In this document: positions 15,866 through 59,831 of the stretch, piece after piece
How the letters are laid out: every line of letters starts with the position of its first letter
Position numbering within the stretch: the first letter of the stretch is position 1
Source of the DNA: a virus
Reading direction: 5' to 3' (one strand)
IMG/VR virus record: IMGVR_UViG_3300045988_074841
Length of the DNA stretch: 64,000 nucleotides
The notes under the pieces: generated by a model
What the model saw: only the letters and a program-made list of their open reading frames with translations
What the model was told of the DNA's origin: nothing
Databases searched by the model: none
Made by a program: the position numbers and the translations under genes

Positions 15866-15930
15866 CCGCCCCGTAGAAGATGTAATTGGTAGAACTTCTA
15901 CTAATCATACCTTTTACGGGGCGGCTTTCA
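15866..15930 (+). terminator. Composite hairpin: inverted pair of GC-rich element (CCGCCCCGTAGAAG ... CTTTTACGGGGCGG) with conserved ~31-nt loop containing mini-palindrome GTAGAAcTTCTAC
   Basis: Copies at 15866-15879 and 15911-15924; sits between stop 15855 and start 15956. Confidence 0.6.
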
Positions 15931-22708: not shown

Positions 22709-25429
22709 ATGACTGTAAAAATTAAAAGAAGAAGTCTTCGTTGTGGTGGTAGACCTAAAGCTGACTTCGGTAGTATTTTTACTACATTTATTGCTCCTGC
22801 TTTAGGTGTTGCAGGTTCTGTAGCGGATTCTGCTATAAGTAAAACCCAAGTTTCAAAGAGCAATACTAAACAGGTTGTTAAAGATACTAACACAGAAGTT
22901 ACTAATAATAATACTTCTGTTGAGAATCTTCCTACTATTCAAGTTCCTACTAAAGATCCAATTAGTGGACTTGTTACTAGTAATACTGTTATTCCTCCTG
23001 ACCCAACTAAAACTCCTACTATGAGACTAGGTGGTAGAAAGAAATGTTGGATTGGTGCAGCCATTGGTGCTGCTACTAGTATAGCAGGTTCTTTATTTGG
23101 TGCTGCTGCTCAAAAAAGAGAAATGCGTCGGCAAAAGAGTATTCAAGATTGGCAGAATACAACTCAAGAAGCTGCTAATATGACTACTGCTCTTAATAAT
23201 AGTCAAGATTATCAAGAAGATTATCTTAGACAATTTAGAACTGCTGCTAGACTTGGTAAAACTCTTGGAGCTAAAGGTATTTATATTACTGATGGTGGAG
23301 ATGCTACTAAGATAGGAAACAACACATATCTTCTACGGGGCGGTTCTCACGAAGATGTGAATGAGACTGGTCAAACAGGTATTGGTATCAATGTTGGTGG
23401 TAATGAAGTTGAAGCTGAAGGTGGTGAAGTTGCTCAGAAGAAGAATGGTGCTCTAAGAATTTTTAGTGCTCAACCTATTCTTGGTGGTATAAGTCCTGCT
23501 CAAGCTGTAATTAATGGAGCTAACAAAGATAAAGTATTTAGTACTCAACAAACTTTTAAGAAAAGAAATGGTCTTGAAGATGATGGTAGTAAAGCTCAGG
23601 TTGGTGGTTATTATGGAGCTAACTATCCTTCTCCTTTGTCTTTATTATCTGTTATTTACGATAAAACTTTAGGAAGATTTGATAATAAAAATCCTTTCCT
23701 TCAAACAGGTACTGCACCAACTCCTAGTAGAGGTTTAAATCTTAAGCAAGTTCGTGGTGGACTTGTTAATAGAAATATGCTTCGTACTAATAGAGTTTAT
23801 CGTATATCAAATATGAGAGAAGTAAAAGATGCTAAATCTGTAGGACAATATAGAAAATTACCTGAAGGCGTTAGACTTCCTAAAAAAACTGTAGTAAGTA
23901 AAAATGGAAGAACTTTCTCGATTGGAAAAGTTGGTGGTAATAGTCATGGAGGAAAAGCTGCTGCTATGGGTGAACCTTGGACTGGAACAACTAGCGGAGG
24001 ATACAATGAAAGTAAATATGTTATAAGTACTCCTTCTAGACATACAGTTTGGCAAGTAGGTCATCATGGAAGTTATTCTAAACCTCTTCCTGCTGATGCA
24101 ATAAAAAAAGGTAGTGGTCTTTGGAAAAAATTCGATGCTGAAGGTAATACTGGAATTAGTACTAAACGCATGGTTGTGTATAAAGATTTAGGTAATGGTA
24201 GATATTTAAGATTAGCTAAAAGTAAATATAGACTTGGTGGCGGTTTAACTTCTAAAGATAGAGGTTCTTCTAAACATCCATATCCTTCTGTATCATCTAA
24301 AGATTTTGCAGGTGGTAGTAGAAGTTATCCTATTCCAACTAAAGATGATGCTGTTGATGCTTTAAGACTTGCTGGTCTTCATGGAAGAAGTGATGTTAGA
24401 AGTAAAGTATATAGTAAATATCCTAGTCTTAGAAAGAAGAGTTTATTAGGTGGTTGTAGCCGCCCCGTAAAAGGTATGAGACCTAAAGCTGATACTGGTA
24501 TCTTTGTTCCTTTCAATAAACGTTATACTTCTATTTATGATGCTCCAGATTATAATTCTGATTATAATGGTGGTAATGTTTTAGGTAACGGTGAAGTAAC
24601 AGTTACAGCTAAGAGAATTAAGCCTACTTTTATGAAACCAAATAATGATGCAATGAATATCATTAATCATCCTGCTAATGAAACTCCTTATATTCCACAA
24701 AGACATAATCGTAGTCGTACTATATTTAGTGGTGGAGATTATTTAGGATTAGGTATTGATACTCTTGCTGCATTAAGTACAGGTCTTGTAAATTATAATA
24801 CTGCTGGTAAATATGTTCTTCCTGATAGAGCACCTATTATTCAGGCTAGTAAATTACCTACAACTTATAATGTTAATCCTGAAATAGAAGAGGTTAAACG
24901 TTATAGAGATAGACTTACTGGGCAAACATTCAATAATACTTCAAGTTCTGTAGCTGCTCTTAATAGAAGTGGTGCTATTAATCTTGATGCTCTTTCTAAT
25001 CTTAGTAAACTTTGGGCTACTAAAGAGAATGAAGAGAACAAGATGCTTACAGAAGATGCTAAGAATCAACAAACTGTTGCAGCACAGAATGTACAGAATG
25101 AACTTGCTCGTCAAAGTGAAATTGCTAGAATTAAGAATGAAGCTAATCAAGCTAAGGGTGATGCTCTTAATGTTGGTCTTAGTGGATTGTCTCAAGCTTG
25201 GACTAATTTCTGGACTGCTGGTAGAACTGCTTATGAAGATGACCAAGCTAGACGTGCAATGATTGCTTCTAGTAAAGATGCTACTCCTACTAGACTTATG
25301 GAAATGGATTTTGATTTATCTCCTGATGTTATAGCTGCTCTTTATAGAACTTCTAACGAAGATAGAACTAAACGATTCTATTTGTCTAGATTGTCTCCTA
25401 AACAAAGACAAAAATATGGTATAAATTAA
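22709..25429 (+). CDS. Gly-rich virion cargo/ejection protein (906 aa) with glycine-zipper TM-like segments and C-terminal coiled coil
   Basis: FTTFIAPALGVAGSVADSAIS and WIGAAIGAATSIAGSLFGAAA segments; internal duplicated CGGRPKAD(F/T)G(S)IF module; two in-frame GC-rich element copies. Confidence 0.6.
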   Translation: MTVKIKRRSLRCGGRPKADFGSIFTTFIAPALGVAGSVADSAISKTQVSKSNTKQVVKDTNTEVTNNNTSVENLPTIQVPTKDPISGLVTSNTVIPPDPTKTPTMRLGGRKKCWIGAAIGAATSIAGSLFGAAAQKREMRRQKSIQDWQNTTQEAANMTTALNNSQDYQEDYLRQFRTAARLGKTLGAKGIYITDGGDATKIGNNTYLLRGGSHEDVNETGQTGIGINVGGNEVEAEGGEVAQKKNGALRIFSAQPILGGISPAQAVINGANKDKVFSTQQTFKKRNGLEDDGSKAQVGGYYGANYPSPLSLLSVIYDKTLGRFDNKNPFLQTGTAPTPSRGLNLKQVRGGLVNRNMLRTNRVYRISNMREVKDAKSVGQYRKLPEGVRLPKKTVVSKNGRTFSIGKVGGNSHGGKAAAMGEPWTGTTSGGYNESKYVISTPSRHTVWQVGHHGSYSKPLPADAIKKGSGLWKKFDAEGNTGISTKRMVVYKDLGNGRYLRLAKSKYRLGGGLTSKDRGSSKHPYPSVSSKDFAGGSRSYPIPTKDDAVDALRLAGLHGRSDVRSKVYSKYPSLRKKSLLGGCSRPVKGMRPKADTGIFVPFNKRYTSIYDAPDYNSDYNGGNVLGNGEVTVTAKRIKPTFMKPNNDAMNIINHPANETPYIPQRHNRSRTIFSGGDYLGLGIDTLAALSTGLVNYNTAGKYVLPDRAPIIQASKLPTTYNVNPEIEEVKRYRDRLTGQTFNNTSSSVAALNRSGAINLDALSNLSKLWATKENEENKMLTEDAKNQQTVAAQNVQNELARQSEIARIKNEANQAKGDALNVGLSGLSQAWTNFWTAGRTAYEDDQARRAMIASSKDATPTRLMEMDFDLSPDVIAALYRTSNEDRTKRFYLSRLSPKQRQKYGIN
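23330..23343 (-). repeat. GC-rich element copy (CACATATCTTCTACGGGGCGG) in 906-aa gene (LLRGGS)
   Basis: seen in sequence. Confidence 0.8.
24460..24480 (+). repeat. GC-rich element copy, 21 nt (CCGCCCCGTAAAAGGTATGAG) inserted in second copy of an internal duplication of the 906-aa gene (SRPVKGM)
   Basis: seen in sequence; absent from paralogous segment at 22741-22779. Confidence 0.85.
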
Positions 25430-25441
25430 TATTATATAAAT

Positions 25442-25485
25442 ACTTCTGATAGTACTATTACTATCAGAAGTTTTACTATTTTTGT
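25442..25485 (+). terminator. Rho-independent terminator (13-bp stem ACTTCTGATAGTA/TACTATCAGAAGT, 4-nt loop, T-run)
   Basis: Perfect inverted repeat 25442-25454/25459-25471 followed by TTTTACTATTTTTG. Confidence 0.7.
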
Positions 25486-25509
25486 AATCAGTAATTAAAT
25501 AATAATATT

Positions 25510-26727: not shown

Positions 26728-26739
26728 AATAATAAAATT

Positions 26740-28632
26740 ATGCTTAGTAAAAAAATATATAATCAATTTATAAGTGATGGAGATTATATTGGTGCTGCTA
26801 ATTATTTATCTCGTGCTCACTTTAGTGACCCAGTTAAACAGTCTCTTGTAAATCAAGCTATAAAGAAACTTAGAACTGATGGTCGTAGAATACAAGGTAT
26901 GATGAGTAGAGCTGATGAAAATCAACGTAAAGCTTTTAGTTTTCTCAATGCAGTAAATAGTAATAGTATTCTTCCTGGTCTTAATAATGGTACAGATGCT
27001 GATGGTAATAGACGTGCTCCAGATAATATTTTTAGTAAAGATTATTCTGAAGCTAAACGTAGATTAGGTAGCCAAGGTTCTAAAGAAGCAGAAAGTTTAT
27101 CTATTAAGTTTGGTGGACAAACTGAGAAAAGAAGACTATTAGGTTTAGATTGGCTTGCTAAAGACTACGAATATAAAACTGATGCTTTTGAAGATATGCT
27201 TAGAAGAAGCAGACTTAGTAAAGATGCATTAATTAAATCAGGAGCTAAAGTTAAAATAAAAGATGGTCAATATATTCTTGATATTAGTAAACGTAATCCT
27301 TTATTTAATAAAGTATATAATGCTTTACTTAGCACTAAAGGATATGATAATAATTATAGATTTCAAGTAGCTGGTATAGATGCTAAAGGTAAGCTTATAG
27401 GCATAGGTGATGCAGATAAAAATTGGATTAATAGAAGAAGTAGAACAGATATAACTAATACTGATGGTTATTATATTAATCCTACAGGTAATAATAATTT
27501 TGAAATGCCTAATAATATTATAGCTGCTGCAAATCAAACTATCCGCCCCGTAAAAGATATGAGTGGTGATGGAAGTGGGTTATCTACTGTTAGTTCTATG
27601 ATTCTTCCTTTTAATAGTGCTCGTAGAAAACAAATTAGTGATGCTCTTAATACTGGTGGACTTAATACCGAATTAGCTAATGCTCTTGTAAAAGAAAATA
27701 ATGAAGCTATTCTTAATGGTCTTATGAATGCTGATTTTACTCAGTATGAAATGTATGTTACTGATGAAGAAAATACTGATGACCATACTACAGTTCGTCA
27801 TACAGTAGATAGTAGTAATGAAAAAGCTAATATTCAAGATTTAGTACGTGCAGCTATTGCTAGCGGAAAGTTTGACCCAGAAACCCAAGTTTCTCTTGGT
27901 ATGCAAGGTAATCAAACTGGTTATGTTATAACTATTCCAACTAAGATGGATAATGATACAGAAACAGGTAATAGAATTGAAGATATTAAACAAAATAGTC
28001 GTCAAATATTTATTCCTGATTTTATGAATGGTGAAGCTGAGAAAGTATTCTCTCAAAATTCTCAGACTAGAGCTATGAAAGAACTTGCTAGTATGGAAAT
28101 GTATAATTATTCTGTTGATATTCCTCAAGATGGTAGACTTAATGTTTATAATGACCCTTCTACTGGAAAGGCAATTTATCAAATGGAATATGATAGTGGT
28201 AGAGTACAACCTTTAACTAAAGAAGATGCACTTCGTAAAGTTAACAAAATGCTCATAGTTGAGGATGGTATTGATTTAGCTAATAAACAATTTTACGATG
28301 AAGATGGTAATCTTCGTAAAGGTCTTAGAAATAAAGATGGTTCTTTAAATGCTCAATTTCAACAAGATTTAAGTAGACAAATAGACACTTATGTTACTAG
28401 TGCTATGAGTGAACTTTATCCACAAGCTTGGCAAAGTTTTGCTCCTATTGCTAATAATGTTATAAATGGAGATTTTTCATCTGAAGATTATAAGACTAAA
28501 TTAGCTAAAGCTATGGATAGTTTTGTAGATACAGATAATATTAATCTTATTAATAATCAAAGAGCTATTTATTCTAATTATATTCTTAGTAATATAGGAA
28601 TGTATGATAATGATGCTTATAATATTGATTAA
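26740..28632 (+). CDS. Hypothetical virion protein (630 aa)
   Basis: ATG ORF; contains one in-frame GC-rich element copy (IRPVKDM). Confidence 0.5.
   Translation: MLSKKIYNQFISDGDYIGAANYLSRAHFSDPVKQSLVNQAIKKLRTDGRRIQGMMSRADENQRKAFSFLNAVNSNSILPGLNNGTDADGNRRAPDNIFSKDYSEAKRRLGSQGSKEAESLSIKFGGQTEKRRLLGLDWLAKDYEYKTDAFEDMLRRSRLSKDALIKSGAKVKIKDGQYILDISKRNPLFNKVYNALLSTKGYDNNYRFQVAGIDAKGKLIGIGDADKNWINRRSRTDITNTDGYYINPTGNNNFEMPNNIIAAANQTIRPVKDMSGDGSGLSTVSSMILPFNSARRKQISDALNTGGLNTELANALVKENNEAILNGLMNADFTQYEMYVTDEENTDDHTTVRHTVDSSNEKANIQDLVRAAIASGKFDPETQVSLGMQGNQTGYVITIPTKMDNDTETGNRIEDIKQNSRQIFIPDFMNGEAEKVFSQNSQTRAMKELASMEMYNYSVDIPQDGRLNVYNDPSTGKAIYQMEYDSGRVQPLTKEDALRKVNKMLIVEDGIDLANKQFYDEDGNLRKGLRNKDGSLNAQFQQDLSRQIDTYVTSAMSELYPQAWQSFAPIANNVINGDFSSEDYKTKLAKAMDSFVDTDNINLINNQRAIYSNYILSNIGMYDNDAYNID
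27543..27563 (+). repeat. GC-rich element copy (CCGCCCCGTAAAAGATATGAG) in 630-aa gene (IRPVKDM)
   Basis: seen in sequence. Confidence 0.8.
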
Positions 28633-28634
28633 TT

Positions 28635-31600: not shown

Positions 31601-34600
31601 TGCTCTTCATCTTAGTGGTAATCTTAATTATCGTTTTGGTGAGCAAATACAAGAAATGCTTGCTAAAGATGATTTGTTTGAAGATACTAAACCTGCTGCT
31701 ACTCAAGCTCAAGAAGAAGAAGCTGAACAACTTAATTCTACAACTCCTGCTCCTACTGAAGCACCACCGACAGTGGAACCCCTAAATCCTTCGCTCTCAG
31801 CCCCTCAAATTAAGCAGACGGATAATTCATCAGGTTCACCACTTGAAAGCGTCACAGCGCAAGGAAATACGCAATTATCGAATGTTGGTACACAACAGCC
31901 TGCTGCGAAACCGAGTAAAATCGGAAAATTAAACTTTACAAATAATAAATTTGTAGCTAGTACTGGTAATGAGACTGCTTCTGATGATTATCAACTTGTT
32001 CCAACTCAGAATAACGATGAGTATGAAGTTCATCCTACAAGTAATGATAGCATTGCAAATCTTACAACTAATGAAGATTTGTTTGCTAATTCTAATATTG
32101 CTACTCAAGATAACGTAGGTATAACTTCTTATCCTATTGTTAGACTTACTGGTAATAATTTTGAAGTTGTTAGTCAAGGTAAACTAGGAATTGAAGATGT
32201 AAAAGAAGAAGAAACTTCACAGCAAACATCTTCTACGGGGGGTCTAGAACAAACTGAACCAGTAGAATCTCAAGCAGCAACTGAACCTATTCCTGAAGTA
32301 GAAGAGACTACTCCTGAAGTTGAAGAACCTAAAGTTCCTGATTTTATGGGTAATGCTTCTGACACTAAAGTCATTAGAGATGTTATTACTGAATTAAAAA
32401 CTACTCCTGATTTAGATTTAGATGCTAAAGCCAAGAGTATTCTTGATGATTATGTAGCTAAAGGATATAGTGAAACTGAAACTAAAAAACAAATAGATAG
32501 TGCTTTTAGACGTATTCGTAAGAGACAAGAAAAACTTATGAATAAAGAAAGTACTGTTGCTTCTGTTTATTTTAGTAGTTTTGACCAAGAAGAACGTAAT
32601 GCCAAATCTAAAAATGGTAAAGCTGTAGTATTTGATGATTCTTATAAAAAAGCTGTTAGTGACCTTCTTGATGTATACGCTAAAGATGCTGAACTTCCAC
32701 AAATTAATGGTAAGTATTATGGTAATCTTATGAACCTTATGGATTATATTAAGTCTGCTTATGATGATTATTCTATGGCTGACTTTATGTTTAATAGTTT
32801 GTCTGCTTATCTTAATACTCCTGAAGGTCAAGCTAAATTTAATATTACTGATGCCAATGATGTTAGTAATCCTGTTGCTTTCTTAAATAACTTCCATAAA
32901 TCTCAAGCTGAAAGAGATGCTGCTCTTTCTAATGGAACTGTTCATCAAGTTAATATGAATCTTTCAGATTTTGGAACTGATGAATATATGAAAGAAAGTT
33001 ATGCTGAACAAGTTAAACTTAAAAATGGCGATAAACTTACTATAGAAAGAGTTACTACAAGTAAAGGTACTAGTCGTTTAGGTATCAAATCTAACGGTAA
33101 ACTTGTTGGTAGTATATCAATTCCTTCTACAGGAGAAAGAGGAGAATATGTTCAAAAGAATGATGGACTTATTTATCATATAGATAAAGCTGATGGTTCT
33201 AAAGATGGAGCACTTAAACAAGTTCTTAAAGATATAGCTAGAAGTAAAACTCCTGAGCATGAAAAACTTAATGAAATTATTCATAAAGCTGCTTTTGATA
33301 AGTTTAACGCTGAACAGCTAGTTAATGAATTTAAGAGTAATCCTATTGTTCAAGATATGGTTAAGAATCATATGATTAATTTTGATGGAACTGGTCCTGA
33401 ATATGAAGTTGCTCTTAATGGTCTTGCTAAACTTTGGAGATATAACTATAAAGTTCTTACCGAAGGAAGGGTTAATAAGTTTACTGGTGCAGTAGTTGCT
33501 AATTCTATTGATAAATGGTTTGATACTCTCCGTGAAAGTTATAATGAAACTAGTAAATTAGATAACAATCCAAACATTGATATTGTAGCTAGTGATGTAT
33601 TTGAAGGTGAGCTTATTCGTAGTAATGATGGTACTTTTAAAAGTGATGCTGAAACTTCTCTACCTATTCAATTAGCTATCGCTAAAGATACTAAGTTTGA
33701 AATTGCTGCCAAATCTACTACTGGTGAATTTATTAATGGTATTGGAAGTAATAAGTTTCTTGTTAGTGTTGGTCGAACTTATGTTACTGTTCCTCGTAGT
33801 AACGGTACTGTAGATATTGTAAATGCTTATCCAGTGAGTTGGACAGGTGCTACATATTATACAAAAGATGACAAACAACAACAAGTTGAGACAGGTAAAG
33901 ACTTTAAGCAGCTTCAAAATGCTATAATTACTCAAATTAAAGATAGACTTGCTTCTATTAATGATGGTGATTTTGCTGAAAATAGAAATAACTTTATTGA
34001 TTTTATTGATAATCTTCTTAATATCAATAAAAATCCTATTTTCCTTAGTAAAGAACTATCTGTATTTAGAACTGCAAATATTCTTGGAATTAACTTTGGT
34101 AATAAGAATAATCAACTTCTTTTCTATAGAGATAAGAATGGTGATGGTGTAGGTCAAATAATTAATAAAGTTGATGGTAAACCTAATTATATTTCTTACA
34201 ATAGTGATTTATCTGCTGTAAGCGATAGACTTATTGAAGGAATAAAAAGTCTCAATTTCAATATTAACTTTGCTGTTTTAAAGTCTGATAATAATCATAA
34301 TATTCCTCTTCAAGGTATTACTAGTAGAACTACTGACGGTAAGTTTAAAATTACTATTCCTGAATATAAAGGGAAAAATGGTGTAAATCTTACTTATGAT
34401 AGTTTTAAAGATTTTATTCAACAAAACAATCTTCTTAGAGTTAATATGGCTCAAGAAAACGGTAGTAATATTAGAAGAACTGCTATTAATAAACAAGGAG
34501 CTAATGCTAGATTTAGTTTTCAAGTAACAAATAAACAAGAAAGCCGCCCCGTAGAAGATGTTAGTGATAGTTATATTTCTAAAGCTGATGAAATTAAATC

Positions 34601-35708
34601 CATTGTAACATCTGATTCTACAGATAAAGGTTTTGAAGTTGCTAGTGCTCTTTTATTAGATGATACATCTAAAGAGAAACTAAATAGTATTAAAAGTGAT
34701 AGTTCTTTACGTAAACTTTTAGCTAAAGATATTATCTTTGACGAAGAATTTATGAGTAAAGAACATGCACAAGCTAATGCTGTTTGGAGCAAAACTAAAG
34801 GTGGTAAAGTTGTTATTGGTCAGAAATTCTTAGATATGATTAATAGTAAGAAACCTGGTGAAAAAGGTAGAGCTATTAGAACTTTGATGCACGAAAATCT
34901 TCATGGTTATATTGAAGATATGGCTAATAATAAACGTCATCCTAATGCGGTTGCTAATCTTAGAAATAGAATGCAAGATATTTATGATGATTTTGCTACT
35001 GCTATTAATCAAGATATTAATGATTTAAAAGCAGGAAATATTGATGAGATTAAACAACGTAGACATATTCAAGATAAAGCTACTCTTGAAAAGATTAGTG
35101 AGTGGCTTAATAATGTTAATACTTTTACTGCTGAAAGTTATGCTACTCGTGAGAATCCTCAAGATGCTCTAGAAGAATTTATTGTTGAATCTCTTACCAA
35201 TGTTGATTTAATGAATTATCTTAATCAAGTTGACGCTGATGGTGGAGTAGTTAAAGGCAATACTATTTGGCAGAAAATACTCAAGTTTATTGGTGACTTG
35301 TTTGGTATTAATATTCGTCCTAATAGTCTTCGTGCTAAACAAATGGAAGCTCTTGGTGAAATATTTAAGAATAATCAAGAAGCTGAAGTTAAAGCTGAAG
35401 AAAAAGAAGAAGAAGTTACTCAACCAACAACATCTTCTACGGGGCGTATAGAAGAAGTTGAAACAGAAACAGTTGCTGATAATACTAATAGTGTTATAGA
35501 TAATGATGATGTTGGAAATGCTAATGAGGTGTTTGATATTAAGGATGAAGATGTTGATGCTGATGATGAATATGATGCTGATGAAAGTACTAGTGAAGAA
35601 GTAGCTTTCAATTCATTCAACTCAGCAATCGAATCTCTTCCGATGTCGGAACGTGCCAAATTTGCCTCTCTCGTTAGCTCTGCTGCGATTTCGATGTCTT
35701 GCAAATAG
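28635..35708 (+). CDS. Giant virion cargo protein (2357 aa) with HExxH zincin-like motif near C-terminus
   Basis: HENLH at 34890-34904 (LMHENLHGYIEDM); multi-domain with acidic low-complexity linkers; three in-frame GC-rich element copies; GC3-rich patches at 31760-31925 and 35600-35708. Confidence 0.6.
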   Translation: MNTENVFNNSGVIVSNPNYNPKTKKGRAQQPFFHTLDVSQDITSGAANEFAKNANNAWVMGDTHSYQRYGVTPNIITNLDKERAENQSNWTKAGNALGQTLVSQAILGTIKAVPDLFDAIANGFFTSDGDYQNPISNKIKEWQDYFDQEVAPIYSDPEHNDIYSGGLTNFGWWASNVPSVMSSLTLLLPATGIMKGAGAIGKALKLGARSRSGLKSLFGINKTLDNIERGVEGAQLSGFQSAAAKIINSTREGGKLNTFANVGGNAVLQRMMENYQEAQGVYQDVYKDATDKLNHMNNQDYQAFVNKNQELLQDVDTSDRNAVARKISKASADEDFKYNFGNLTFDIIQMYGLRGFWKGLKDRGGAYSLNQTLRNNKLAIGKTEEEIKAAADKVSAWTKARNKVWDRIKNEKLIVAGELSEGLEEGVNYIAQMEGTNLGKVLLDEADADKSPWDDRMKKYLRSGGLADSAFWGVMGGVVFHHLGSTFGKIQATIDEKNKTKKDDKTGESTPSSFGLSETGEIKARRDNMQSWLNTFNTFFDRAAKIKEGVNPFAGLNENSDIKGNTTAQEIAKSRAQDELITDLTLNAAHHGNAGYLREFIKSNEVRDALVNKGITTKEDATQTQQEILNKMDEVTQQYNNELTRVINIADNYAAHRKDDQVIPIEYLQMIATNNVKYGQDIARQEDKLNLTQSNINAALQVKEIADKLDDTSIDDLQRVAAQTILANNLAELYAQRREIEESAKTDISQAVALDNINKNIAAVQAQLTPDYLREAIRTGITAFHDENGVLKFKPNEGASKELKDIMSLDLTDAEGNEDATKRDDYFKRLDEYAIKHNIIGELSKYSDELSIAEQNKAFEDNRRKANEVLTAVDEFGIPGVVGKNFTDLLVDKAIAEVNRDYLRSKQVKNREDIASELSFLNQTLDDARVKVVNKSFDTVKDIAKRNKDNRDVIINAIGAYYNQDFENYDNFVSILNDKDKANLKESLDALHLSGNLNYRFGEQIQEMLAKDDLFEDTKPAATQAQEEEAEQLNSTTPAPTEAPPTVEPLNPSLSAPQIKQTDNSSGSPLESVTAQGNTQLSNVGTQQPAAKPSKIGKLNFTNNKFVASTGNETASDDYQLVPTQNNDEYEVHPTSNDSIANLTTNEDLFANSNIATQDNVGITSYPIVRLTGNNFEVVSQGKLGIEDVKEEETSQQTSSTGGLEQTEPVESQAATEPIPEVEETTPEVEEPKVPDFMGNASDTKVIRDVITELKTTPDLDLDAKAKSILDDYVAKGYSETETKKQIDSAFRRIRKRQEKLMNKESTVASVYFSSFDQEERNAKSKNGKAVVFDDSYKKAVSDLLDVYAKDAELPQINGKYYGNLMNLMDYIKSAYDDYSMADFMFNSLSAYLNTPEGQAKFNITDANDVSNPVAFLNNFHKSQAERDAALSNGTVHQVNMNLSDFGTDEYMKESYAEQVKLKNGDKLTIERVTTSKGTSRLGIKSNGKLVGSISIPSTGERGEYVQKNDGLIYHIDKADGSKDGALKQVLKDIARSKTPEHEKLNEIIHKAAFDKFNAEQLVNEFKSNPIVQDMVKNHMINFDGTGPEYEVALNGLAKLWRYNYKVLTEGRVNKFTGAVVANSIDKWFDTLRESYNETSKLDNNPNIDIVASDVFEGELIRSNDGTFKSDAETSLPIQLAIAKDTKFEIAAKSTTGEFINGIGSNKFLVSVGRTYVTVPRSNGTVDIVNAYPVSWTGATYYTKDDKQQQVETGKDFKQLQNAIITQIKDRLASINDGDFAENRNNFIDFIDNLLNINKNPIFLSKELSVFRTANILGINFGNKNNQLLFYRDKNGDGVGQIINKVDGKPNYISYNSDLSAVSDRLIEGIKSLNFNINFAVLKSDNNHNIPLQGITSRTTDGKFKITIPEYKGKNGVNLTYDSFKDFIQQNNLLRVNMAQENGSNIRRTAINKQGANARFSFQVTNKQESRPVEDVSDSYISKADEIKSIVTSDSTDKGFEVASALLLDDTSKEKLNSIKSDSSLRKLLAKDIIFDEEFMSKEHAQANAVWSKTKGGKVVIGQKFLDMINSKKPGEKGRAIRTLMHENLHGYIEDMANNKRHPNAVANLRNRMQDIYDDFATAINQDINDLKAGNIDEIKQRRHIQDKATLEKISEWLNNVNTFTAESYATRENPQDALEEFIVESLTNVDLMNYLNQVDADGGVVKGNTIWQKILKFIGDLFGINIRPNSLRAKQMEALGEIFKNNQEAEVKAEEKEEEVTQPTTSSTGRIEEVETETVADNTNSVIDNDDVGNANEVFDIKDEDVDADDEYDADESTSEEVAFNSFNSAIESLPMSERAKFASLVSSAAISMSCK
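32230..32243 (-). repeat. GC-rich element copy (CTTCTACGGGGGGT) in acidic linker of 2357-aa gene (SSTGGLE)
   Basis: seen in sequence. Confidence 0.7.
34544..34564 (+). repeat. GC-rich element copy (CCGCCCCGTAGAAGATGTTAG) in 2357-aa gene (SRPVEDV)
   Basis: seen in sequence. Confidence 0.8.
35434..35446 (-). repeat. GC-rich element copy (CTTCTACGGGGCG) in acidic linker of 2357-aa gene (SSTGRIE)
   Basis: seen in sequence. Confidence 0.75.
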
Positions 35709-35734
35709 ATTATTCATAGAATATATTTCAGGGT

Positions 35735-35777
35735 TCTAGAGGAGAATTTAAAATCCTCTAGAACTTTAATTTTTAAA
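35735..35777 (+). terminator. Terminator hairpin TTCTAGAGGA-gaatttaaaa-TCCTCTAGAA + T-run
   Basis: 10-bp perfect stem; core GAGGAGAATTTAAAATCCTC recurs at 49959-49978. Confidence 0.65.
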
Positions 35778-35800
35778 TAACTAATTTAATTAATAAAGTT

Positions 35801-38800
35801 ATGGCTTGTAATTTTAAAACAACAAGTGCTGGCACAAGCATTAAACGTAAGGTTGGAGCAAATAATGCTCGTTTTGTAGCGTTAATTAGTCTTATTAGTA
35901 ATCCTGAAACTGGAGGTTTTACTGATGAGTTTGTTAAGTATTATCAGAAAGTAAATCATACTGATAATATTCCTAGTGTTGATAATTCCGAAAGAGGAGT
36001 TATCGCTAAAACTGCTATCCGTTATTATAATAGTATTCACTTTGATGTTAATGCTCAAAGTACAGGTACTTATTATGATAAGGATGTAGATGCTTTCGGT
36101 TATAGTGATAGTCATGCAAAGGTATATGCTATTACTAGAGCAATTCCTAATATTATGCGTAGTATGTATGTTAGTGATATTAGAAGTGGAGAAATTGTTG
36201 ACAAGGATTCAATTCTTGGCGATTTAATTAAACGTACAAAAGTTAGGATAACTAAGGATGTTGCTGCTAATTATCTTAAAGCTATTGGTAAACCTGCAAC
36301 TAATGTTGAAGTTAATAAGATAGCTGATGCTCTTCTTAATAATAATGAAACTTATTATAAGAAAGATGAACTTATACTTGCTATAACTAAAGCTTTTGAC
36401 AAGAATGGTGATGTTCAAGTTCAAAATACTTTTGCTATTTATAAAGATATATTTAAAGATACTACTGGTAAAGATTTCTTTAATAGAGTTATTATTGCTG
36501 ACCCTATTATTGGTAATCTAAAATATAGCGATGAAACTGAATCTAGTCTTGCTGAAGCTTATGCTGAAGATTTTGATTCAGTAGATGATTCTTCTTATAA
36601 TAATAACGAAGATGAAGATGTACTTACTGTAGGTGATAGACAAGATAATACTTGGAATGATCATAGTGGTCTTGGTTCTAGTTATATGAAAGGTTTTGAC
36701 CTTGATATTCGTCTTAGTCTTTCTATGATACCTAAACTTACTAGTAATACTGTTGATACTAAGACTTTAAAGTCTGGTAAAGTAAAGGATGTTTACGATT
36801 ATGATAAAAACAATCCTACTGGTAATGTAGATTATATTGACGTAAAAGATATTATTAGTACTCTTAGTGCTAAGAAAGATGTTTCTAATCTTAATACTTT
36901 TATTGATAGTGTAAAAGAAGCTAGTAATATTCCTGGTATGGAAGGTCTTATTAAACTTTATAAAGACCTTACTTCTGATTTAGATTATGCTGCTCGTCTT
37001 TATACTCAATTCAAAACTGTAATTAACAAATATGAAACTCGTATTGCTGATGAGAATACAGCTATGAATAAGAGTAATAAGAATAGTAATGCTCAGCAAG
37101 TTCATGCTCTTAGTTTCCTTAATGATGCTAAGTTTACTCATATAAATACTGATTCTGATATTACCAATAAACTTGCTAATGAAGTAGATGAAACTATTGT
37201 AGAATATACTCAAGCTCTTGCTGCTGGCGATGAGTTTGCTTTAGACCAAGCTAAACTTTATAATACTATTGTTGATAGAATTGCTTCTCGCATTAAAGAT
37301 TATTATCCTAGTGCAGATAAAGCTTCTATTGATAATTATGTTCGTCTTGCTAATAATGGTGAAGTTGCTACCAATATGCGTTATCTTACTGATAGTCTCA
37401 GAAAGATAGCTAAAGCTTCTGATGCTACTACTTCTCAGTATACTGAAAATCGTGATGCTATTAGCGGTATTAACAAAGAAATTAGGAAACTTCAAACTAA
37501 AATTGACGCTCTCAACGAAGCTGGGGAACATAAAGGTATAGATAAAATCAATGAAGAAATAGATAAACTTGTTAGTCAAAGAGATAATATTCGATTTAGT
37601 GATTATCGTTCTCAAGATAGTATTACTCAGAGTATTGCTTTATCTGATAAACTTTATCCTTATTCTTCTGTTAAAGTTGAACTTAATTCTCGTAATGGTT
37701 TGGGTAATCTTCAATCTGATATTATCAATAGTTCCATGATTACTTATCTTCTTAAAGTACTCAATAGTCCTAAGACTACTACTGATGAATTAGGTAATAC
37801 CGCTCCTGAGTCTCTTGTTAACTTTGCTAAGTTTAAGTTTAAGAACAATCAATATAATCTTAGTAATATTCTTATTGAGACTAGAGAAAATGGTAAGATT
37901 GTAAATTATGGTCTCTTTTATTATGATGCTGACAAACAGAAATATGGTGTTACTAATTATGCTTCTGGTTTACTTAACGTTGCATTATTTAATGGAGCTG
38001 TAAAAACTGATGAAGGTACAGGTATTACTTATGCTCAAATGAGTAAAGGCGATTATGTTTATACTGCTTTTGCTAATTATTTTAATAGCGATAAAAATAT
38101 TGATGCTGATAGAGTAACTAATAGCATTCCTCTTGCTAATTACTTTATGAGAACTCCTTCTGATGCTCCTAAAACATTTGTAGTTCGTGCTCCACGTTAT
38201 CATATAACTAAGAGTAATCCAATTAGAACTGTAACAAATGCTGCTGATGTAGATAATTATATTAAGAATTATGTTGCAGAGCATATTGCTAGTATGTCTG
38301 AAGCTGCATTTAATCAAGCTAATCCTAGAGCTAAATTTATTCAACTTGAAGATAATCGTAGTGATCGTGCTCAAATTACTAGAGATTTAACTGATAATAA
38401 TATTACTCGTTCTGTATATGAGAATGAGATTATTCGTAATGATGGTAAAACTGCAACTATTGGTTATCAATTTACTGATGAAGAAGGTAATGTAAATAAA
38501 TATATTATTACCGGTTCTATTCGCCACGTAAAAGGTATGAATAAATTTGTTATTGAGAATGGTAAAGCTACTATTCTTGATAATAATGAAATGAGAGATA
38601 ATCTTCGTCCTATGATATATGATAAGTATCGTAAACAAGCTTATCGTAACGGTAGAATTGGTGATGTTCAAGTTGATTATAAAGTTAATAGAGAACATCC
38701 TATTTATAAACAATTTAGAAAGATATTTAATCAAGAGTTGACTAATATGGCTGAGGCTATTAATATGATATTCTTGACTGGCGATGATGGTGTTATTCAG

Positions 38801-41800
38801 CGTGAAGCTGATGGTAAACCTAAGTTTAATCCTAATAATGCTTTTGGATTAGATAAAGAATCTGCTCGTAGACTTTATGCTAATTATCAAACTAAAAAAG
38901 ATAAATATCTTGATTCTAATTATGGTTTAGTTGGAAATATGTTCCATAGTGATAAGTTCACTATTACTGATTATAAGACTGGTAAAATTCGTAATTATGG
39001 TCAAGAACTTCTTGATGATTATTTTGATAGTCTGTATAATGGTAGTAAAGGTGGCTTTATTCATTTTGGTTATGAGAATGGTAAGATTAAACTTAATCAT
39101 ACTAAAGACCAAGCTAAAGCTATTGATAACAAAATAGCAGAATTTATTAGTGATTATATTTATAGTTCTGCTATACGTATGGATGAATTTAAAAATCTTG
39201 ATGTAGCTGGACTTATTAATGATGATAATGTTGCTGACTTTGCTCTTAATTATCGTCTTGCTTATAATTATTTTGATGATTTATTTGAAGGTGATGATAA
39301 GTTTTATAAGTCTTCTCAAGACTTCTTGAAACGTGCTAAGGAAGGTCAAGCTAGTGGTACTCCTTATAGTACTTTCAATATTTATCAAGATGAGAATATG
39401 ATGTTGACAGACTTAAAGAAGATGAGTTATCTTAATAGTCAAGCTATTCAAGATAAACTTAATAGTCTTGGTCTTCATGTTACTCAACGTCCTGGTTTTG
39501 TTGGTATTACTATTAAGAATACTGTAAGAACTTCTCATGAAGCTTCTCAAAATGGTCCTGTTGTTCATGAACTTGCTCGTGTTTATATGAAACATGACCC
39601 TGAACTTACAGAAGATGAAGCTATTGCTAAAGCAAATAAGCATATGGAAGGTTATCAAAATACTACTGTAAACGATGCTCAATCTTATATTACTTTTGAA
39701 GAATGGATTCGTCGTGTTGCAGGTAGAGGTCAACTTAATAAATATATGCCTCTTATTGAGCGTATTATGGATAGAAGTAAACCTCTTAGAGTAGATGATA
39801 TTAAAACTTTTGTTCAAGTACAAAAGAACTTCTATTATGATATGACTTATAATGATAAGATTAATACTTATGCTCCTCGTCAAATTAAAAATGCTGAACT
39901 TGTTCTTGTACCTAGATTTATTGAAGGTACTGACCTTGAGAAAGTATACAATCTTATGAAAGACCATGGTATTGACCAACTTAATACAGAAGAGACTTCT
40001 AAAGCTGGTAAAGCTGGAGTTCTTACTTTATTTGATGAAGAAACTGGTGAAGTTACTGATACTCATATTCAAGATTTTAATAACCATGTAGAAGATTATA
40101 AAGAGACTTATTCTTATAATTTCCTTTATACTCAGCAAGAAACTCCTCAACACATGAATGCAGAAAATAAAGCTGCTATTCAAATTATGAAGAAGATTGT
40201 TGATAATATTCCTGATACTGGAACTATTGGAGAAGTTAAGAAAGAGTTTTTTAAACTTTATGTTGCTAATATTAAAGATAGTTTCAATAGTCTTGTTAAG
40301 GAACTTAATATTCCTACAAATGAAGATGGTTCTATTAAACTCGATGCTAATGGAAATATTGAAGGACTTGATATGAAACTGTTCTTCAATAAGCTTCGTA
40401 AAGAATGTCTTCGTCAAGGTCTTGATAGTAATATTCTAGAGTTCTTTACTCTTAATGAAGATAGTCCTTATACTGAACTTGGAAGAGCTAATACTGTTAT
40501 GCCTACATATATGACTAATATGATGAGTAAAGCTCAGAATGTTTGTCAGTCTATGTTTAATAATGCTATTACTCGTCAAAAGTTGCCTGGTTTTCATGCT
40601 GCTCAGGTAACTAATGTAGGTTATTCAAAGCATCTTCGTTATCATCCTGATGGTGGACGTTACATTGAAGTTCTTCTTCCTAAGAGCAACTTTGGTTTTG
40701 CTAAAAATGAAGATGGTACTTATAAAGAACCTGATGAAATTAGAGACAAAGATGGAAATCTTGTAGGTGGACTTCTTTATCAACTTCAAAGAGCTAAACT
40801 TGATACAATTATTGGTTATCGTATTCCTACTGAAGGTAAGCAATCTATATGTGCTATGAAAGTAGTTGGATTTACAGATGATGCTCAAGGTTCAACTATA
40901 GTTGTTCCTGATGATTGGGTTGCTCAAACTGGTTCTGACTTTGATATTGATTCTGTATATGGTATTCAACATAATACATATATAGATAAAGATGGAGATA
41001 TTCAAAAAGTTGCTTATAAAGAATCATTTGGTAAATTATATGACGATTATGTAAAAGAACAACTTAATGATGAAGCTAAAGATAAACTAGAAGAAGCTGT
41101 TAAAAATGGAGTTAACGAATCTACTGCTTTAGCTAATGCTGCACAAGAGGGTGGACTTCTTAGTCGTGAAGAATTTAGTAAAGCTAATAGTATTGAAGAA
41201 AAGAATAGTCGTCAAGCTCGTAACAATCGTATACTTGATGATATGCTTCGTATTCTTCAATCTGATGAAGCTTTTGAAGAGAATACTGGTCAATCTCAAT
41301 TTGAAGATATTATCAATGCACGTGATAATATTATGAATGATGTAGTTAAGAGTGTTCGTAATGGTCGTAGTTGTTATGATTTTATTGACCAAGCTGAATA
41401 TCAAGAAGATGTTATGAGTGGTGCTAAACTTAAAGCATTTAGTGTTACTCGTGATACCTTTGTTTCTATTTGCAACAAAGTTCAACCAACTATTGATAAA
41501 AATTATGCTATTAGTGCTAGATATAAAGCTACTCCAAAACAAGCTGAGGTTTTAGCTAAACGTTTTGGAGAAGATAATGTTATTTACAAAGATGGTTATG
41601 TTACAATTAGTCATACTATGATTGGTTGGTCACACGATAATCATAATGTAGATGATGCTATTCTTACTGCTTATAGTTCTGAGACTACAGCTCATATTCT
41701 TGATGCTGTAAAAAAAGGTGCTGTACCTAATGTAAATGAGTTTACTTTTGCAGTATATAAAACTTTCCCTGATGTAGGTAGTAATTATAAGACTGGTGTT

Positions 41801-44800
41801 GCATTTATGATGCACCCTGCTGTAACTCGTATAGTTAATGCTTATAATAAAGGTAAATCTGTTTATAGTGAAGATTCTGCTCAACCTATAGTTGATGCTC
41901 TTAAAGAAGTAGCTGAAGAACTCGATGTTGATAGTAGTTCTTTATATTCAGGTAAAATGGTAGTTGAAGCTATTAATGATAAACTTGGTACAAATTATAG
42001 TTTTATTAAAAACAACAATATTGTTCTTGATGAAGAGCAATTAGCTAGTGATGTAAAGAATGCAAACAATGTTTCTCTTGCTCGTGAAGTAGAGATTCTT
42101 ATGGCTTACAATGATATTAATCGTTTAGCTGATGTAATTCAGAAAACTGTAAGAGTTTGTAATCCTGATAAGTTTGGAGCTAAACAAACTATATTTGCTA
42201 CTAATGAAGTATTTGAAACTATTAAAGATATAATTAATAGTAAACAAGCTAAAGTACTTAGTAAGAATGATATTCCTTTCCTTGAAAGTATTTATCCTGG
42301 ACTTATTAAAGATGGTGTTGTAGATAAAGATAATTATGTAAAAGATACTCATGAATCTGCTTATCCTTCTCTTAATGCTTTCTTAAAGTATGCTTCAGTT
42401 ACTAGTACTGTAGTTAATAGCATGCTTTTTGAAACTCAAAATTCTGCTTTTGTAACTACTATTAAAGCTCTTAGTAAAATGCTTCCTACTCCTCGTAAAC
42501 TTACTGAGAAAGAATATAATGATTATGAGAAGTATGTTATTGGTGCTGCTTATAATAATGCTGACGGAATTAGATTAGGTTATACTATCAACTCTTCTAC
42601 GGGGCGTCTTGAATCAACTAAAACAAGTGATTTACAAGAGCGTCTTCGTATTTATGGATTTAGTGGTAGTCCAGTATTTCATTTTGATGTTGAAGATATT
42701 ACTGAACCAACTCAAGATGAAATTGATGCTTGGTCTAAACTTACTCCTGCTCAAAAAGTTGCTTGGTTACAAAGTAAAGCAGAAGATGGTGGTATATTTA
42801 GTAAACTTAAAGTTGACCTTCAAGATAATTATCGTGTTGGTAATAAAGAATGTGCTGCTCAATCTATTCGTTTTAATGATGATAATGTAGATACTGAAAC
42901 TGCTTACAATCTTTTTGAAACTGCTACTAAGAGTCAGAATCCTCTTGTTAAACTTGCAGCTATAGACCTTATTAAATATGCGTTTGTAGTTGAAGGTTTC
43001 AAGATGCGTCGTAATGGTATTAATAAGATTATTAAGAATAGTACTCTTCGTGATGATACTTTGTTTGCTAATCAAGATGGAGAACCTACTAGTCTTCTTA
43101 GTCAAATTGATGCTAATTTTAAGCATATTACTTATGATGATTATCGTGATGATTATTTAAGAAGTCATTCTGATAATGGTATGGTTCCAAAAAGAACTGT
43201 AAAGAAGAAAAGAGTAGGTAAAATTTGGGTTAATGAACTTAGTGCTCCTGATGGAGTTATAACTCTTAATGTTCCTTCTCGTAGAAATGATATTACAGAA
43301 GCAGATATTAATGATGAATTTGCTGCTACTAAAACTATTGCAGAAGAGACGGAAATCCGCCCCGTAGAAGATGTAGTAGATAATAAACTTCAAGTTGTTC
43401 AAGATAATACTACTGCTCCAGATGATACTAAACTTGCTGTTAAGTATGGTATTTATAATGCTTGGACTGATAGAGTTAATCCTTATGTAAAACTTACTTT
43501 TAAGAATCGTGGTGTTAATACTACGAATCTTTATAAGACTGTTCGTCATGGTGATATAATATTTGCTTATCCTGTTAGTATGCTTGAGGAAAACGAACAT
43601 GGTATTGTTTCTGTTAATCAAGCTAATAATACTCTTTATAGTGAGATGTATTATAGAACTATTATTGATAATAAACTTCAAGGTAATCAACTTACTAAAG
43701 AAGAAGCAGATAAACTTCGTAAAGAATACGCCAATGAACGAGCTATTTCTTCTAAAAGTAGAGTTAATACTGGTTTTGATATTAATAAAGATAGAACTAC
43801 TGGCGATATAGGTGGTGCTCGTGATGCTTATAGTAAAATTATTAATCTTATTAAGAATGATGCTAAAGGTATTCAAATTATAAACAATAGGTATCTTTAT
43901 AATCGTGTTAGTGAAGGATTTGGTAATTTCCAAATTATTCATGATGTAATTGATGGTAATGAAGTTACTAAGAAAATTGCTTTTGCTAAAGAAACAAAAG
44001 TAATATTTGATTCTGAAGGTAAAGTAATTCCTTATCCTGTTAAAGTTATTCAGATTATTCCTTCTACTAATGATAAAGAAAGTACATCTGTTGAATATAA
44101 TTTTGACATGTTTACTGATATTAATCGTAGAGCACATGAAGGTGATGTCAATGCTTATCGTGAAGTTCAGTTTATGAATAATAATGGTTTTGAGAATGTT
44201 AGTACTGATTATACAAATATGTCTCCTAAACTTTATGAAGCTATTGATAGATTCACTAGTGCTACAGCTAAGAAACTTATCAGTGATGCTGACCAATTCT
44301 ATAAAAAAGAAGATGGAACTTATGCTTCTATATTTGCTCCTGAAACTATAGAAATGATTCGTAATAATCCTAGTGAGCAAAGACGTTTTCAAAAGTTACT
44401 TCTTGATACAGATAGTATTATTAATAAATATGGTACTATATTTGATGTTGTAGTTGACGAAAATGAGAATCCTGAAGTAATTGATTTTATTAATCATATT
44501 AAGAAAACTATTGGAGATTTACGTAACAAACTTAATCTTAGTACTCTTAATGAAAGATTTGCTAGAGAAGTTGTTGCTAAATGGTCTAATGACCCTAATA
44601 TTCAAAATGGTTTAGTTGATATTTGTAATGGTTATCATGCTGTTACTTGGTGTGATGCTTGGATTGGAGATTTACAAGATACTGGTAATAGTCTTATTCA
44701 AAATATTAGCAAACATATAGTTGATGATATTAGTGCTAAAGATATGCAAGCTGCTAAAGATGCTCGTGAATTTGAAAAAGCTATTAAAGCTCTAGGTCAC

Positions 44801-49175: not shown

Positions 49176-49196
49176 CCGCCCCGTAAAAGAGTTGAT
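49176..49196 (+). repeat. Solitary GC-rich element copy (CCGCCCCGTAAAAGAGTTGAT) 2 nt after vRNAP stop codon
   Basis: seen in sequence; no inverted partner nearby. Confidence 0.8.
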
Positions 49197-52077: not shown

Positions 52078-52310
52078 TCACAGAAACGAGGAAAAAATGT
52101 CGTTAATTTGTGTTAAGGCTAACTATAACTATCTGATAATCAATTAGTTACAGCGTCAAAAATTGGCTCTATATATATAATATATTAGTCCTATGATATT
52201 TGACACGGCAAAGATAACTAAAAAGTAGTATACTGGTACAACTTTTAAGCTAAATGTTGTATATATCTACAATATTTTCTATAGTAGCATTAACATCACC
52301 TACTTCACAT

Positions 52311-52380: not shown

Positions 52381-52386
52381 ACATCC

Positions 52387-59708: not shown

Positions 59709-59831
59709 ATTATTAAGTTATTTAATATTTTAATTTTGTTTCTAACGAATTGAATTTAGTTATATGAATAACTAATAAGCGAGCATAATAAAGCCGCTCA
59801 CACATGAAGTAAAGTGGAAATCTGCCACATT

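Follow-up and report, generated by a model that had tools for sequence, protein, structure and literature searches.

The DNA considered here is a 64,000-nucleotide (nt) stretch of a crAss-like phage (IMG/VR virus record IMGVR_UViG_3300045988_074841; hereafter the window), with a G+C content of ~30%. Scattered along it, on both strands and within as well as between genes, is a short element represented by the 16-mer CCGCCCCGTAGAAGAT, whose coding copies yield the same few peptides over and over. What is being maintained at these sites? A sequence-only reading of the window had offered two answers, namely, that the copies are insertions tolerated only where they are harmless or that the encoded peptides are themselves functional, for example, as processing sites for a virion protease. 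The data presented below point instead to a dispersed signal that is selected as DNA, with the peptides as its by-products and a trans-acting factor as its reader. Taken as a whole, we give this interpretation a probability of roughly 0.75.

The 16-mer has 19 matches in the window at up to three mismatches, against 0.03 expected, and 21 at up to four mismatches, split 11 to 10 between the plus and minus strands; 20 window copies match an 11-nt core, CCCC-R-T-R-R-A-R-G. This core occurs 11 to 31 times in each of eight Intestiviridae genomes compared to ~0.05 times per genome in Markov shuffles, the comparison genomes being complete genomes retrieved via their primase protein and not via the motif. 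A sequence logo built from 40 nonorthologous sites contains information only from about −5 to +24, with T, M, n, A (37/40), and G ahead of the 16-mer and R, T (35/40), and G behind it; the element is ~20 to 24 nt long, without longer “ends.” The flanks differ by lineage. The closest deposited genome to the window, uncultured phage cr8_1 (Crassvirales; Intestiviridae; Obtuvirinae; Fohxhuevirus), with which DNA similarity is only patchy, has 24 core copies in the dialect tCTAG-CC[G/C]CCCCGTAAAAGGT-ATG. The other two Obtuvirinae, cr271_1 (pig) and ctcc615 (mouse), have, respectively, 14 copies spelled AG-CTCCCCCGTAGAAGAR and 11 copies (more if GTAGAAA is allowed) spelled CTCCCCCGTAGAAG or CCTCCCCCGTAGAAA. 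The cultured phage crAss002 (Churivirinae) carries 27 copies of the form TTCCCCC[G/A]TA[A/G]AGGAG, p-crAssphage (Carjivirus communis) 31 of the form TAGACCCCCCGT[A/G]GAGGATGGA, and the Crudevirinae cr110_1 and cr3_1 29 each, of the forms GAGACCCCCCGTAGAGGA and TG[CT]TCCCCCGTAGAGGAA. An IMG/VR scan with 14 nt of the motif recovered many low-G+C relatives with copies at the window positions, together with single matches in unrelated high-G+C sequences, which are due to chance.

Within genes, the copies are built from the rarest codons of the window: CGC makes up 2% and CGG 0.4% of all Arg codons, while CCC accounts for 1% of those for Pro, GGG for 1% of those for Gly, and ACG for 2% of those for Thr. 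Of the 15 PV[EK] tripeptides encoded in the window, only the four in motif copies are spelled CCC GTA, the others being CCA/CCT GTT, and all four occurrences of RPV are motif copies. Over six genomes, 45 of 127 copies (35%) are intergenic and 82 (65%) are coding, the latter comprising 34 in the sense and 48 in the antisense orientation. A single rare spelling that recurs across genes and, read in antisense, gives rise to three unrelated peptides is not how a selected peptide would be expected to behave. The object under selection is the DNA, not the peptide, and the repeated peptides RPV(E/K)x, (S/P)STG(G/R), LLRGG, and (F/L)YGG are by-products of the DNA signal.

Comparison of orthologous sites leads to the same conclusion from a different direction. 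In codon alignments, the site in the DNA primase gene is orthologous in the window, cr8_1, cr271_1, crAss002, and p-crAssphage and has decayed in ctcc615, while a site in the SNF2 helicase gene is common to the five complete genomes examined (5/5). Both are orthologous over three subfamilies, and in each genome their flanks match that genome's own dialect. The primase site is spelled GGG GCG GAT in the window, GGG GGG GAT in cr8_1, GGG GGA GCT in cr271_1, GGG GGG TCT in p-crAssphage, and CGG GGG AAT in crAss002, where the DNA motif has been kept but is read in a different frame to give PLRGN rather than FYGG. At orthologous sites, the amino acids follow the DNA. Protein alignments between the window and cr8_1 show that copies 23328, 24460, 32228, 56651, and 62694 have been retained, and at 32228 the motif persists (SSTGG versus SFTGG in cr8_1) even though the surrounding protein no longer aligns. 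Two window-only copies, 34544 and 35432, face segments of similar length in cr8_1 (EKPLEP and TEET-Q) with no insertion-sized gap. Since cr8_1 has EKPLEP at the position of copy 34544 without any indel, this copy arose by substitution, and new sites in general arise by substitution, not insertion; mobile insertion was rejected on the basis of the indel-free alignments. The element is a cis-acting sequence under nucleotide-level purifying selection, with one dialect per genome.

Why, then, is one reading phase so prevalent? The four sense copies first singled out (24460, 27543, 34544, and 43357) do share a phase and encode RPVKGM, RPVKDM, RPVEDV, and RPVEDV, and xxC CGC CCC GTA RAA GRT is the only phase found among sense coding copies in the window. 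As also proposed, the reverse copies mostly give SSTG(G/R): five of seven antisense coding copies read (S/P)STG(G/R) (SSTGG at 32228, SSTGR at 35432 and 42592, PSTGG at 9899, and PSTGR at 56651), the remaining two being LLRGG at 23328 and IFYGADG in the primase at 62694. The explanation offered for this bias, stop codons in the other forward phases, is half correct. Translation in six frames shows that stops close only one of the six; one forward phase contains a stop (AP*K), but the third (PPRRR/PPRKR) is open and is used five times in relatives. Among the 127 copies from six genomes, sense copies divide into 29 P-V/I-E/K and 5 P-R-K/R/G, the stop frame being unused, and antisense copies divide into 31 S/T-T-G, 9 L/P-R-G, and 8 Y-G-G, both splits differing from equal frame use (P of about 4 × 10^−5 and 3 × 10^−5, respectively). 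The same tripeptides outside the motif occur in matching proportions: 105 P[VI][EK] versus 30 PR[RKG] (fit to the sense split, P = 0.20) and 78 [ST]TG, 30 [LP]RG, and 31 YG[GA] (fit to the antisense split, P = 0.48). The frame bias is a tolerance effect, in that sites made by point mutation survive mainly where the proteome tolerates the tripeptide and in proportion to its acceptability. Copies in the window by itself are too few to establish this bias, which becomes clear on pooling the six genomes. The notion that copies persist where they are harmless thus holds insofar as frame use tracks the tripeptide background, but not as regards insertion or the exclusion of more than one frame by stops.

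A second part of that notion was that copies cluster in linkers of giant proteins. Copies 27543, 32228, 38521, and 43357 and, by composition, copy 35432 do lie in linker-like segments, and the first four of these fall in the lowest 17% of local conservation relative to cr8_1. Copies 23328 (local identity, 0.82), 24460, 56651, and 62694, on the other hand, are within well-conserved segments, and there is no overall shift of copies to poorly conserved segments (window versus cr8_1, Wilcoxon P = 0.37, n = 11). The giant proteins are not preferred either, with 7 copies in 28 kb versus 12 in ~57 kb of coding DNA, i.e., no excess beyond that expected from their length. Judging from these alignments, lineage-specific sites may tend to appear in plastic protein, with ancient sites persisting where a compatible protein motif exists.

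The distribution of copies along the genomes is also nonrandom. They follow one another at intervals of ~3 to 8 kb on both strands (~3 to 4 kb in six of eight genomes). After local pairs are merged, spacing is more even than random in 8/8 Intestiviridae genomes (coefficient of variation [CV], 0.53 to 0.70; P per genome, 0.0004 to 0.04; Fisher, 2 × 10^−10). After removal of local inverted pairs, neighboring copies lie on opposite strands in 102/150 cases (P = 6 × 10^−6), the alternation being individually significant in cr8_1, crAss002, p-crAssphage, and cr3_1. Plus- and minus-strand counts are near balance in most genomes (e.g., 7/7, 10/9, 11/14, and 15/10), with 3/11 in cr271_1. In crAss002, strand alternation is unbroken over the second half of the genome.

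Intergenic DNA is enriched in copies. Eight of the 21 window copies are intergenic by open reading frame (ORF) position (324, 4034/4076, 15866/15909, 49176, and 52309/52367), plus 59830; copy 324 is included here by taking ATG 361, and not the listed TTG 303, as the probable start of its ORF. Of the 20 core-matching copies, 9 are located within the 11% of sequence outside ORFs (P = 1 × 10^−4). Intergenic copies are overrepresented because constraint there is weak.

The intergenic copies adopt at least four different folds or none at all. Copy 324 (324..339, minus strand; CCTCCCCGTAGAAGAT) lies within a hairpin, GGAGAACC..GGTTCTCC, followed by a T run (minimum free energy, −22.2); its G run is used by the terminator-like site at 333-347, the only site flagged by a simple terminator scan. 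In cr8_1, the motif at 47677 is likewise inside a hairpin loop. Two perfect inverted pairs with T-rich tails form stable stems whose loops (26 to 27 nt) are too long for the simple terminator scan. The first consists of a left arm at 4034..4049 (plus strand) and a right arm, ACGCCCCGTAGAAGGC followed by TTTATAATAA, at 4076..4091 (minus strand), arranged head to head in the gap 3787-4109 (−40.1 kcal/mol), and is conserved in relatives. The second consists of a left arm at 15866..15881 (plus strand) and a right arm, CCGCCCCGTAAAAGGT, at 15909..15924 (minus strand) in the gap 15855-15956 (−37.0 kcal/mol), upstream of a gene that is syntenic (by synteny only) with the crAss002 IHF/HU-like gene. 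Similar pairs are present at 64741/64776 in crAss002 (−51 kcal/mol) and at 22901/22928 in p-crAssphage. The two window pairs have a common 12-nt outer flank, ttaatatgaaa (4022-4033 and 15925-15936), and spacers of 26 to 27 nt, and are probably duplicates of each other.

Copy 49176 (49176..49191, plus strand) begins 2 nt past the stop codon of the 4,457-amino-acid (aa) ORF and upstream of the tRNA-Gln gene. A copy at the equivalent place is present in cr8_1, cr271_1, and ctcc615, and in the last two (cr271_1 66210 and ctcc615 12770) its purine half is the 5′ arm of a perfect 10- to 11-bp hairpin right after the giant gene's stop. The copy at 52309..52324 (minus strand) forms a tail-to-tail pair with the degenerate copy CCTCCCCGTAAAGGAC at 52367..52382 (plus strand), which retains the 11-nt core match. 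Copy 59830 (59830..59845, minus strand) adjoins the ligase operon, and the AGCCGC in its 5′ portion forms base pairs with a GCGGCT ~45 nt downstream; the resulting hairpin (window 59780-59870; −24.6 kcal/mol) recurs in cr8_1 near 86689, where the ligase gene block ends (−24.1 kcal/mol).

A hairpin plus T run is present at copy 324, both window pairs, cr271_1 66210, and ctcc615 12770 but not at the 13 coding copies or several single intergenic copies. The conserved feature is a sequence, not a fold. The inverted pairs and the hairpin arms found where operons end probably have a second role in terminating transcription. In a search of Rfam 15, the tRNA-Gln was the sole match in the window, whether the gathering threshold or E ≤ 0.5 was applied. 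At two gene-adjacent intergenic copies (window 49172-49186 and 15853-15876), the motif's TAA/TAG is in frame with the preceding gene's stop and provides a second stop 4 and 7 codons on, for which the probability by chance is ~1 in 9. A further observation concerns crAss002 (4210, 47840, 64741/64776, 86212, and 89648) and p-crAssphage (6022, 28077, 28173, 93667, and 95865), where a G+C-rich module, consisting of CGCTxCGCT-like repeats or of a 5- to 7-bp hairpin with a 3- to 4-nt loop (e.g., GGCAC-TAC-GTGCC), precedes many copies; module and motif make up a longer composite element that is not found in the window's clade.

The coding copies are distributed over several genes. The window has plus-strand genes up to 49174, a tRNA-Gln gene at 49332-49403, and minus-strand genes from ~50.9 kb. 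The leftmost coding copy (9899..9914, minus strand, antisense; PSTGG) is in a 2,537-aa tail-like protein (5958-13571). The ORF at 22709-25429 matches crAss001 cargo protein 1, gp45 (PDB 7QOG, E = 5 × 10^−20), bearing out the suggestion that a cargo protein is among the carriers. It harbors two copies, both with orthologues in cr8_1: 23328..23343 (minus strand, antisense), where LLRGG overlaps a conserved GGSHE segment that also occurs in gp45, and 24460..24475 (plus strand, sense; RPVKGM). The sense copy at 27543..27558 (plus strand; RPVKDM) lies in a poorly conserved segment of a 630-aa protein (26740-28632) and is absent in cr8_1. The 2,357-aa ORF at 28635-35708 is syntenic with genes annotated in other records as “RNAP-associated protein fused to zincin protease” (RNAP, RNA polymerase), a putative assignment made by synteny only. 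It carries copies 32228..32243 (minus strand, antisense; SSTGG), in an acidic low-complexity segment; 34544..34559 (plus strand, sense; RPVEDV), the site that is EKPLEP without an indel in cr8_1; and 35432..35447 (minus strand, antisense; SSTGR), in a very hydrophilic acidic segment.

Next comes the 4,457-aa ORF at 35801-49174, which by synteny only would correspond to genes annotated elsewhere as “RNAP catalytic subunit.” It includes the decayed copy TCGCCACGTAAAAGGT (38521..38536, plus strand; four mismatches), in sense and in the usual phase (RHVKGM), plus copies 42592..42607 (minus strand, antisense; SSTGR) and 43357..43372 (plus strand, sense; RPVEDV), the last in a variable, indel-rich segment. 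Copy 38521 is intact in one close relative (L077) and is represented by other variants in L045 and L111, an example of ongoing turnover. On the minus-strand side, copy 56651..56666 (plus strand, antisense; PSTGR) is in a 216-aa protein (56384-57034, minus strand) with 88% identity to its cr8_1 counterpart, in which the site is orthologous, and copy 62694..62709 (plus strand, antisense; IFYGADG) is in a DnaG-family DNA primase (62308-63534, minus strand; PHROG 12622, E = 2 × 10^−60). A search of solved structures with the primase returned nothing usable. The tRNA-Gln (anticodon TTG), just 3′ of the giant RNAP-like gene and in the same position in cr8_1 and cr271_1, is an ordinary Gln tRNA and not a suppressor.

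What reads the signal, and to what end? As we see it, the signal would consist of the ~11-nt core plus lineage-specific flanks, dispersed and recognized as DNA, with coding sequence bending to carry it where PVE-like or STG-like tripeptides are tolerated, often in flexible acidic segments. The existence of one dialect per genome and the concerted change at orthologous sites imply a coevolving trans-acting reader. Phages of sister Bacteroides hosts carry different motifs (crAss001 of B. intestinalis, CTCCAGAAG; crAss002 of B. xylanisolvens, TTCCCCCRTARAGG), and the window and cr8_1 also differ, from which we infer that the reader is more likely phage than host encoded. Even spacing and alternating orientation suggest a strand-specific process that needs an oriented site within a few kilobases on each strand; orientation would thus matter, and every few kilobases of either strand would require a site. 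As to the action itself, the foremost candidate, to which we assign somewhat less than an even chance, is site-specific strand processing or the control of a DNA translocase, with the element serving as a nick site or a Chi-like self-marker; a swivel site, priming, or the control of a translocating helicase-nuclease could also be considered. Architectural or regulatory protein binding is a more doubtful option, and some other action altogether is only slightly less likely than that. An HNH endonuclease gene adjoins the DNA ligase gene in cr8_1 (84425-86669) and cr271_1 (74894-76710). This enzyme is an unlikely reader, as it is apparently missing from the window, where the ORF layout at 59862-61426 leaves no room for an HNH gene (no homology search was made), an absence that suggests a mobile homing endonuclease gene.

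Several points weigh against the interpretation of the element as a DNA signal with a dedicated reader. Strand alternation is not seen in the window (7/13), cr271_1 (5/13), or cr110_1 (12/22) and is not significant in ctcc615 either. The genomes have ancestry and some orthologous sites in common, so that the samples behind the pooled P values (spacing, alternation, and phase) are not independent. The phase table relies on longest-ORF gene calls and not on curated annotation. In close relatives, motif variation consists almost entirely of purine-to-purine changes at positions 10 and 14 (the R positions), but this divergence profile is biased by the retrieval of loci through exact motif matches; the cross-genus comparisons are free of this bias. 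A bacterial genome scan with CCGCCCCGTAGAAGRTRT gave single, mostly high-G+C chance or coding matches, with no multicopy genome among the matches listed, although it used the 18-nt window dialect and a host genome with the core alone could be missed. A version in which the copies act as recombination hotspots was rejected: the fraction of identity-shift breakpoints between the window and relatives was 0.088 within 150 bp of copies versus 0.084 at random and 0.21 versus 0.16 within 300 bp (P = 0.06).

Among the alternatives, an action of the element in RNA, through long-range stems (RNase III, processing, or stability), as a target of a phage small RNA originating from the intergenic hairpins, or in termination, would account for the tendency of orientations to alternate, for the very stable intergenic-pair hairpins with T-rich tails at operon ends, and for purine-to-purine variation, as wobble pairing permits. 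We nevertheless regard it as unlikely. Single copies have no common secondary structure, there is no Rfam match for the element, and the flanks that define the dialects lie outside any consistent helix; long essential ORFs also contain copies of either orientation, and cleaving or terminating transcripts there would carry a high cost.

A host factor as the reader of the signal, which would then be a Chi-like site for RecBCD/AddAB or a site for a nucleoid- or RNAP-associated protein, seems to us a shade less likely still. Sites that are dispersed, even, alternating, and on both strands are what a permuted genome would need for protection from an end-entering nuclease. However, the core plus flanks far exceed the known length of Chi, the dialects are not the same in phages whose hosts are closely related (crAss001 versus crAss002) or in close relatives (the window versus cr8_1), no many-copy bacterial genome is among the matches listed, and these phages encode, according to their annotation, Gam-like nuclease inhibitors. 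A host-derived repeat is rejected for the same lack of a multicopy bacterial genome for the window dialect among the matches listed.

An origin of the copies by insertion of a very small mobile element akin to miniature inverted-repeat transposable elements (MITEs), doublets of repetitive extragenic palindromic sequences (REPINs), yeast mitochondrial GC clusters, or Rickettsia palindromic elements, with retention where in frame and harmless, is improbable in our view. The motif is indeed a G+C-rich island in a 30% G+C genome, both orientations are found, and some inverted doublets have common flanks (4034 and 15909, ttaatatgaaa). Yet gains are substitutions without indels, information ends at about −5 to +24 with no longer element ends, 65% of copies are intragenic, and the family is in no host genome among the matches listed, while individual sites are orthologous across subfamilies and old sites change dialect in concert.

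Functional peptides (RPVEDV, SSTGR, and the like), for example, as cleavage sites for a virion zincin protease that processes cargo, are very improbable, despite the presence of several copies in cargo or RNAP-related giant proteins, the uniform peptide from sense copies, and the annotation of homologues of the 2,357-aa protein as zincin protease fusions. The rare codons are fixed within copies and the same peptides are written with common codons elsewhere; 35% of copies are intergenic and 48/82 coding copies are antisense, yielding three unrelated peptides; the primase, helicase, and uracil-DNA glycosylase (UDG) genes that also carry copies are not cargo; and the crAss002 primase site keeps the DNA motif while changing frame and peptide. 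Finally, a rare-codon cluster that slows ribosomes at giant-protein domain boundaries to aid folding can be dismissed as barely credible, for although no codons of the genome are rarer and some copies are in linkers, many copies are intergenic (where their conservation speaks against it) or antisense, the nucleotide sequence is identical in every frame, and copies also occur in small proteins and conserved segments.

Among known systems, the signal most resembles, in every feature compared, the uptake signal sequences (USS) of Pasteurellaceae and the DNA uptake sequences (DUS) of Neisseriaceae: a short core with weaker flanks at hundreds of times the chance frequency, near-equal orientations in most genomes, spacing more even than random, preferred coding frames that track proteome tolerance, an origin by point mutation, intergenic inverted pairs resembling terminators, and lineage dialects. 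Strand alternation is, to our knowledge, not a described USS property. These USS/DUS properties are reportedly those set out in work by Smith in 1995, by Findlay and Redfield in 2009, and by Frye in 2013. By analogy, then, the element would behave like USS/DUS, but we do not file it as a member: its carrier is a lytic phage, for which binding by a competence receptor during natural transformation is implausible and no uptake machinery is involved, so that it would work alike without belonging to the group, and its density is ~1 per 3.5 kb versus ~1 per 1 kb.

For a dispersed motif conserved throughout a family, the one published precedent in phages that we found is WACTRTGAC/TACTRTGMC of Pseudomonas phages tf and Rembedalsseter, a nick-associated, asymmetric sequence with ~13 dispersed, mostly intragenic sites per genome, conserved over a phage group with little nucleotide similarity, and located mostly on one strand and one genome side without enrichment outside genes (PMC11780129). 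The element likewise is a family-conserved, dispersed, asymmetric motif within and outside genes; it differs in being on both strands, evenly spaced, and 35% intergenic. Nick-associated motifs are named also for T5 and phiKMV.

With other systems the likeness is partial. The stoperators of Cluster A mycobacteriophages (L5 gp71) are ~24 to 30 asymmetric sites with a subcluster-specific consensus that covaries with the binding protein; they are oriented with transcription, mainly intergenic, and found in temperate phages. The element shares with them the many dispersed asymmetric sites and the lineage-specific consensus, but the direction of transcription does not govern its orientation (34 coding copies in sense versus 48 in antisense) and 65% of its copies are intragenic. 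Chi sites are 5 to 8 nt long, read by host RecBCD/AddAB, abundant in the host genome, and co-oriented with replication. Like Chi, the element would be a dispersed, orientation-dependent DNA signal within coding sequence; unlike Chi, it has an 11-nt core plus flanks and no multicopy bacterial genome among the matches listed, and neither did it show any of the other properties given here for Chi. Rickettsia palindromic elements and yeast mitochondrial GC clusters are also G+C-rich short repeats lying in frame in genes of A+T-rich genomes, but they are mobile insertions, whereas the sites described here are substitution born and orthologous over long distances. From REP, REPIN, and MITE sequences, the element differs in being 65% intragenic, in its indel-free gains, and in its orthology across subfamilies, and from peptide signals in that its peptides are neither codon independent nor limited to sense frames.

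A promoter function was also considered and rejected, since orientation is unrelated to gene direction and the majority of copies are intragenic. The middle-promoter motif of Drobysheva et al. is −35/−10-like and sense oriented and is distinct from the element. Searches of the accessible literature found no account of the signal: the core and dialect strings, in both orientations, matched PCR primers only, and searches with crAss-motif words gave nothing relevant, which is not proof that no published description exists.

Outside the Intestiviridae, the first 100 kb of crAss001 (Steigviridae; MH675552) contains no copies of the core. The same 100 kb has 27 copies of CTCCAGAAG (14 sense, 13 antisense), compared to 1.5 in Markov shuffles (maximum, 4), with strand alternation in 19/26 cases (P = 0.014) and roughly even spacing (CV, 0.72; P = 0.054). 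CTCCAGAAG may be the Steigviridae counterpart of the element. It is tempting, if tentative, to extend the DNA-signal interpretation to an old, perhaps order-wide, strand-specific “punctuation” comprising the Intestiviridae core and perhaps CTCCAGAAG in Steigviridae, with a phage-encoded machine reading regular sites on both strands. The action would then be that of a nick or swivel site, of a priming or R-loop site, or of a Chi-like self-marker telling a helicase-nuclease or translocase phage DNA from host DNA, under a constraint strong enough to dictate amino acids in primase, helicase, UDG, and virion cargo and RNAP proteins.

The crAss-like phages are the most abundant human gut viruses, and understanding of their replication, packaging, and gene control is poor. 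The presence of the signal in the cultured phage crAss002 offers a concrete handle on a core process of these viruses. A DNA signal dictates part of the crAss protein sequence, residues of the primase and helicase included, and this affects alignments, selection scans, and the hunt for protein motifs, and the lineage dialects could serve as taxonomic markers.

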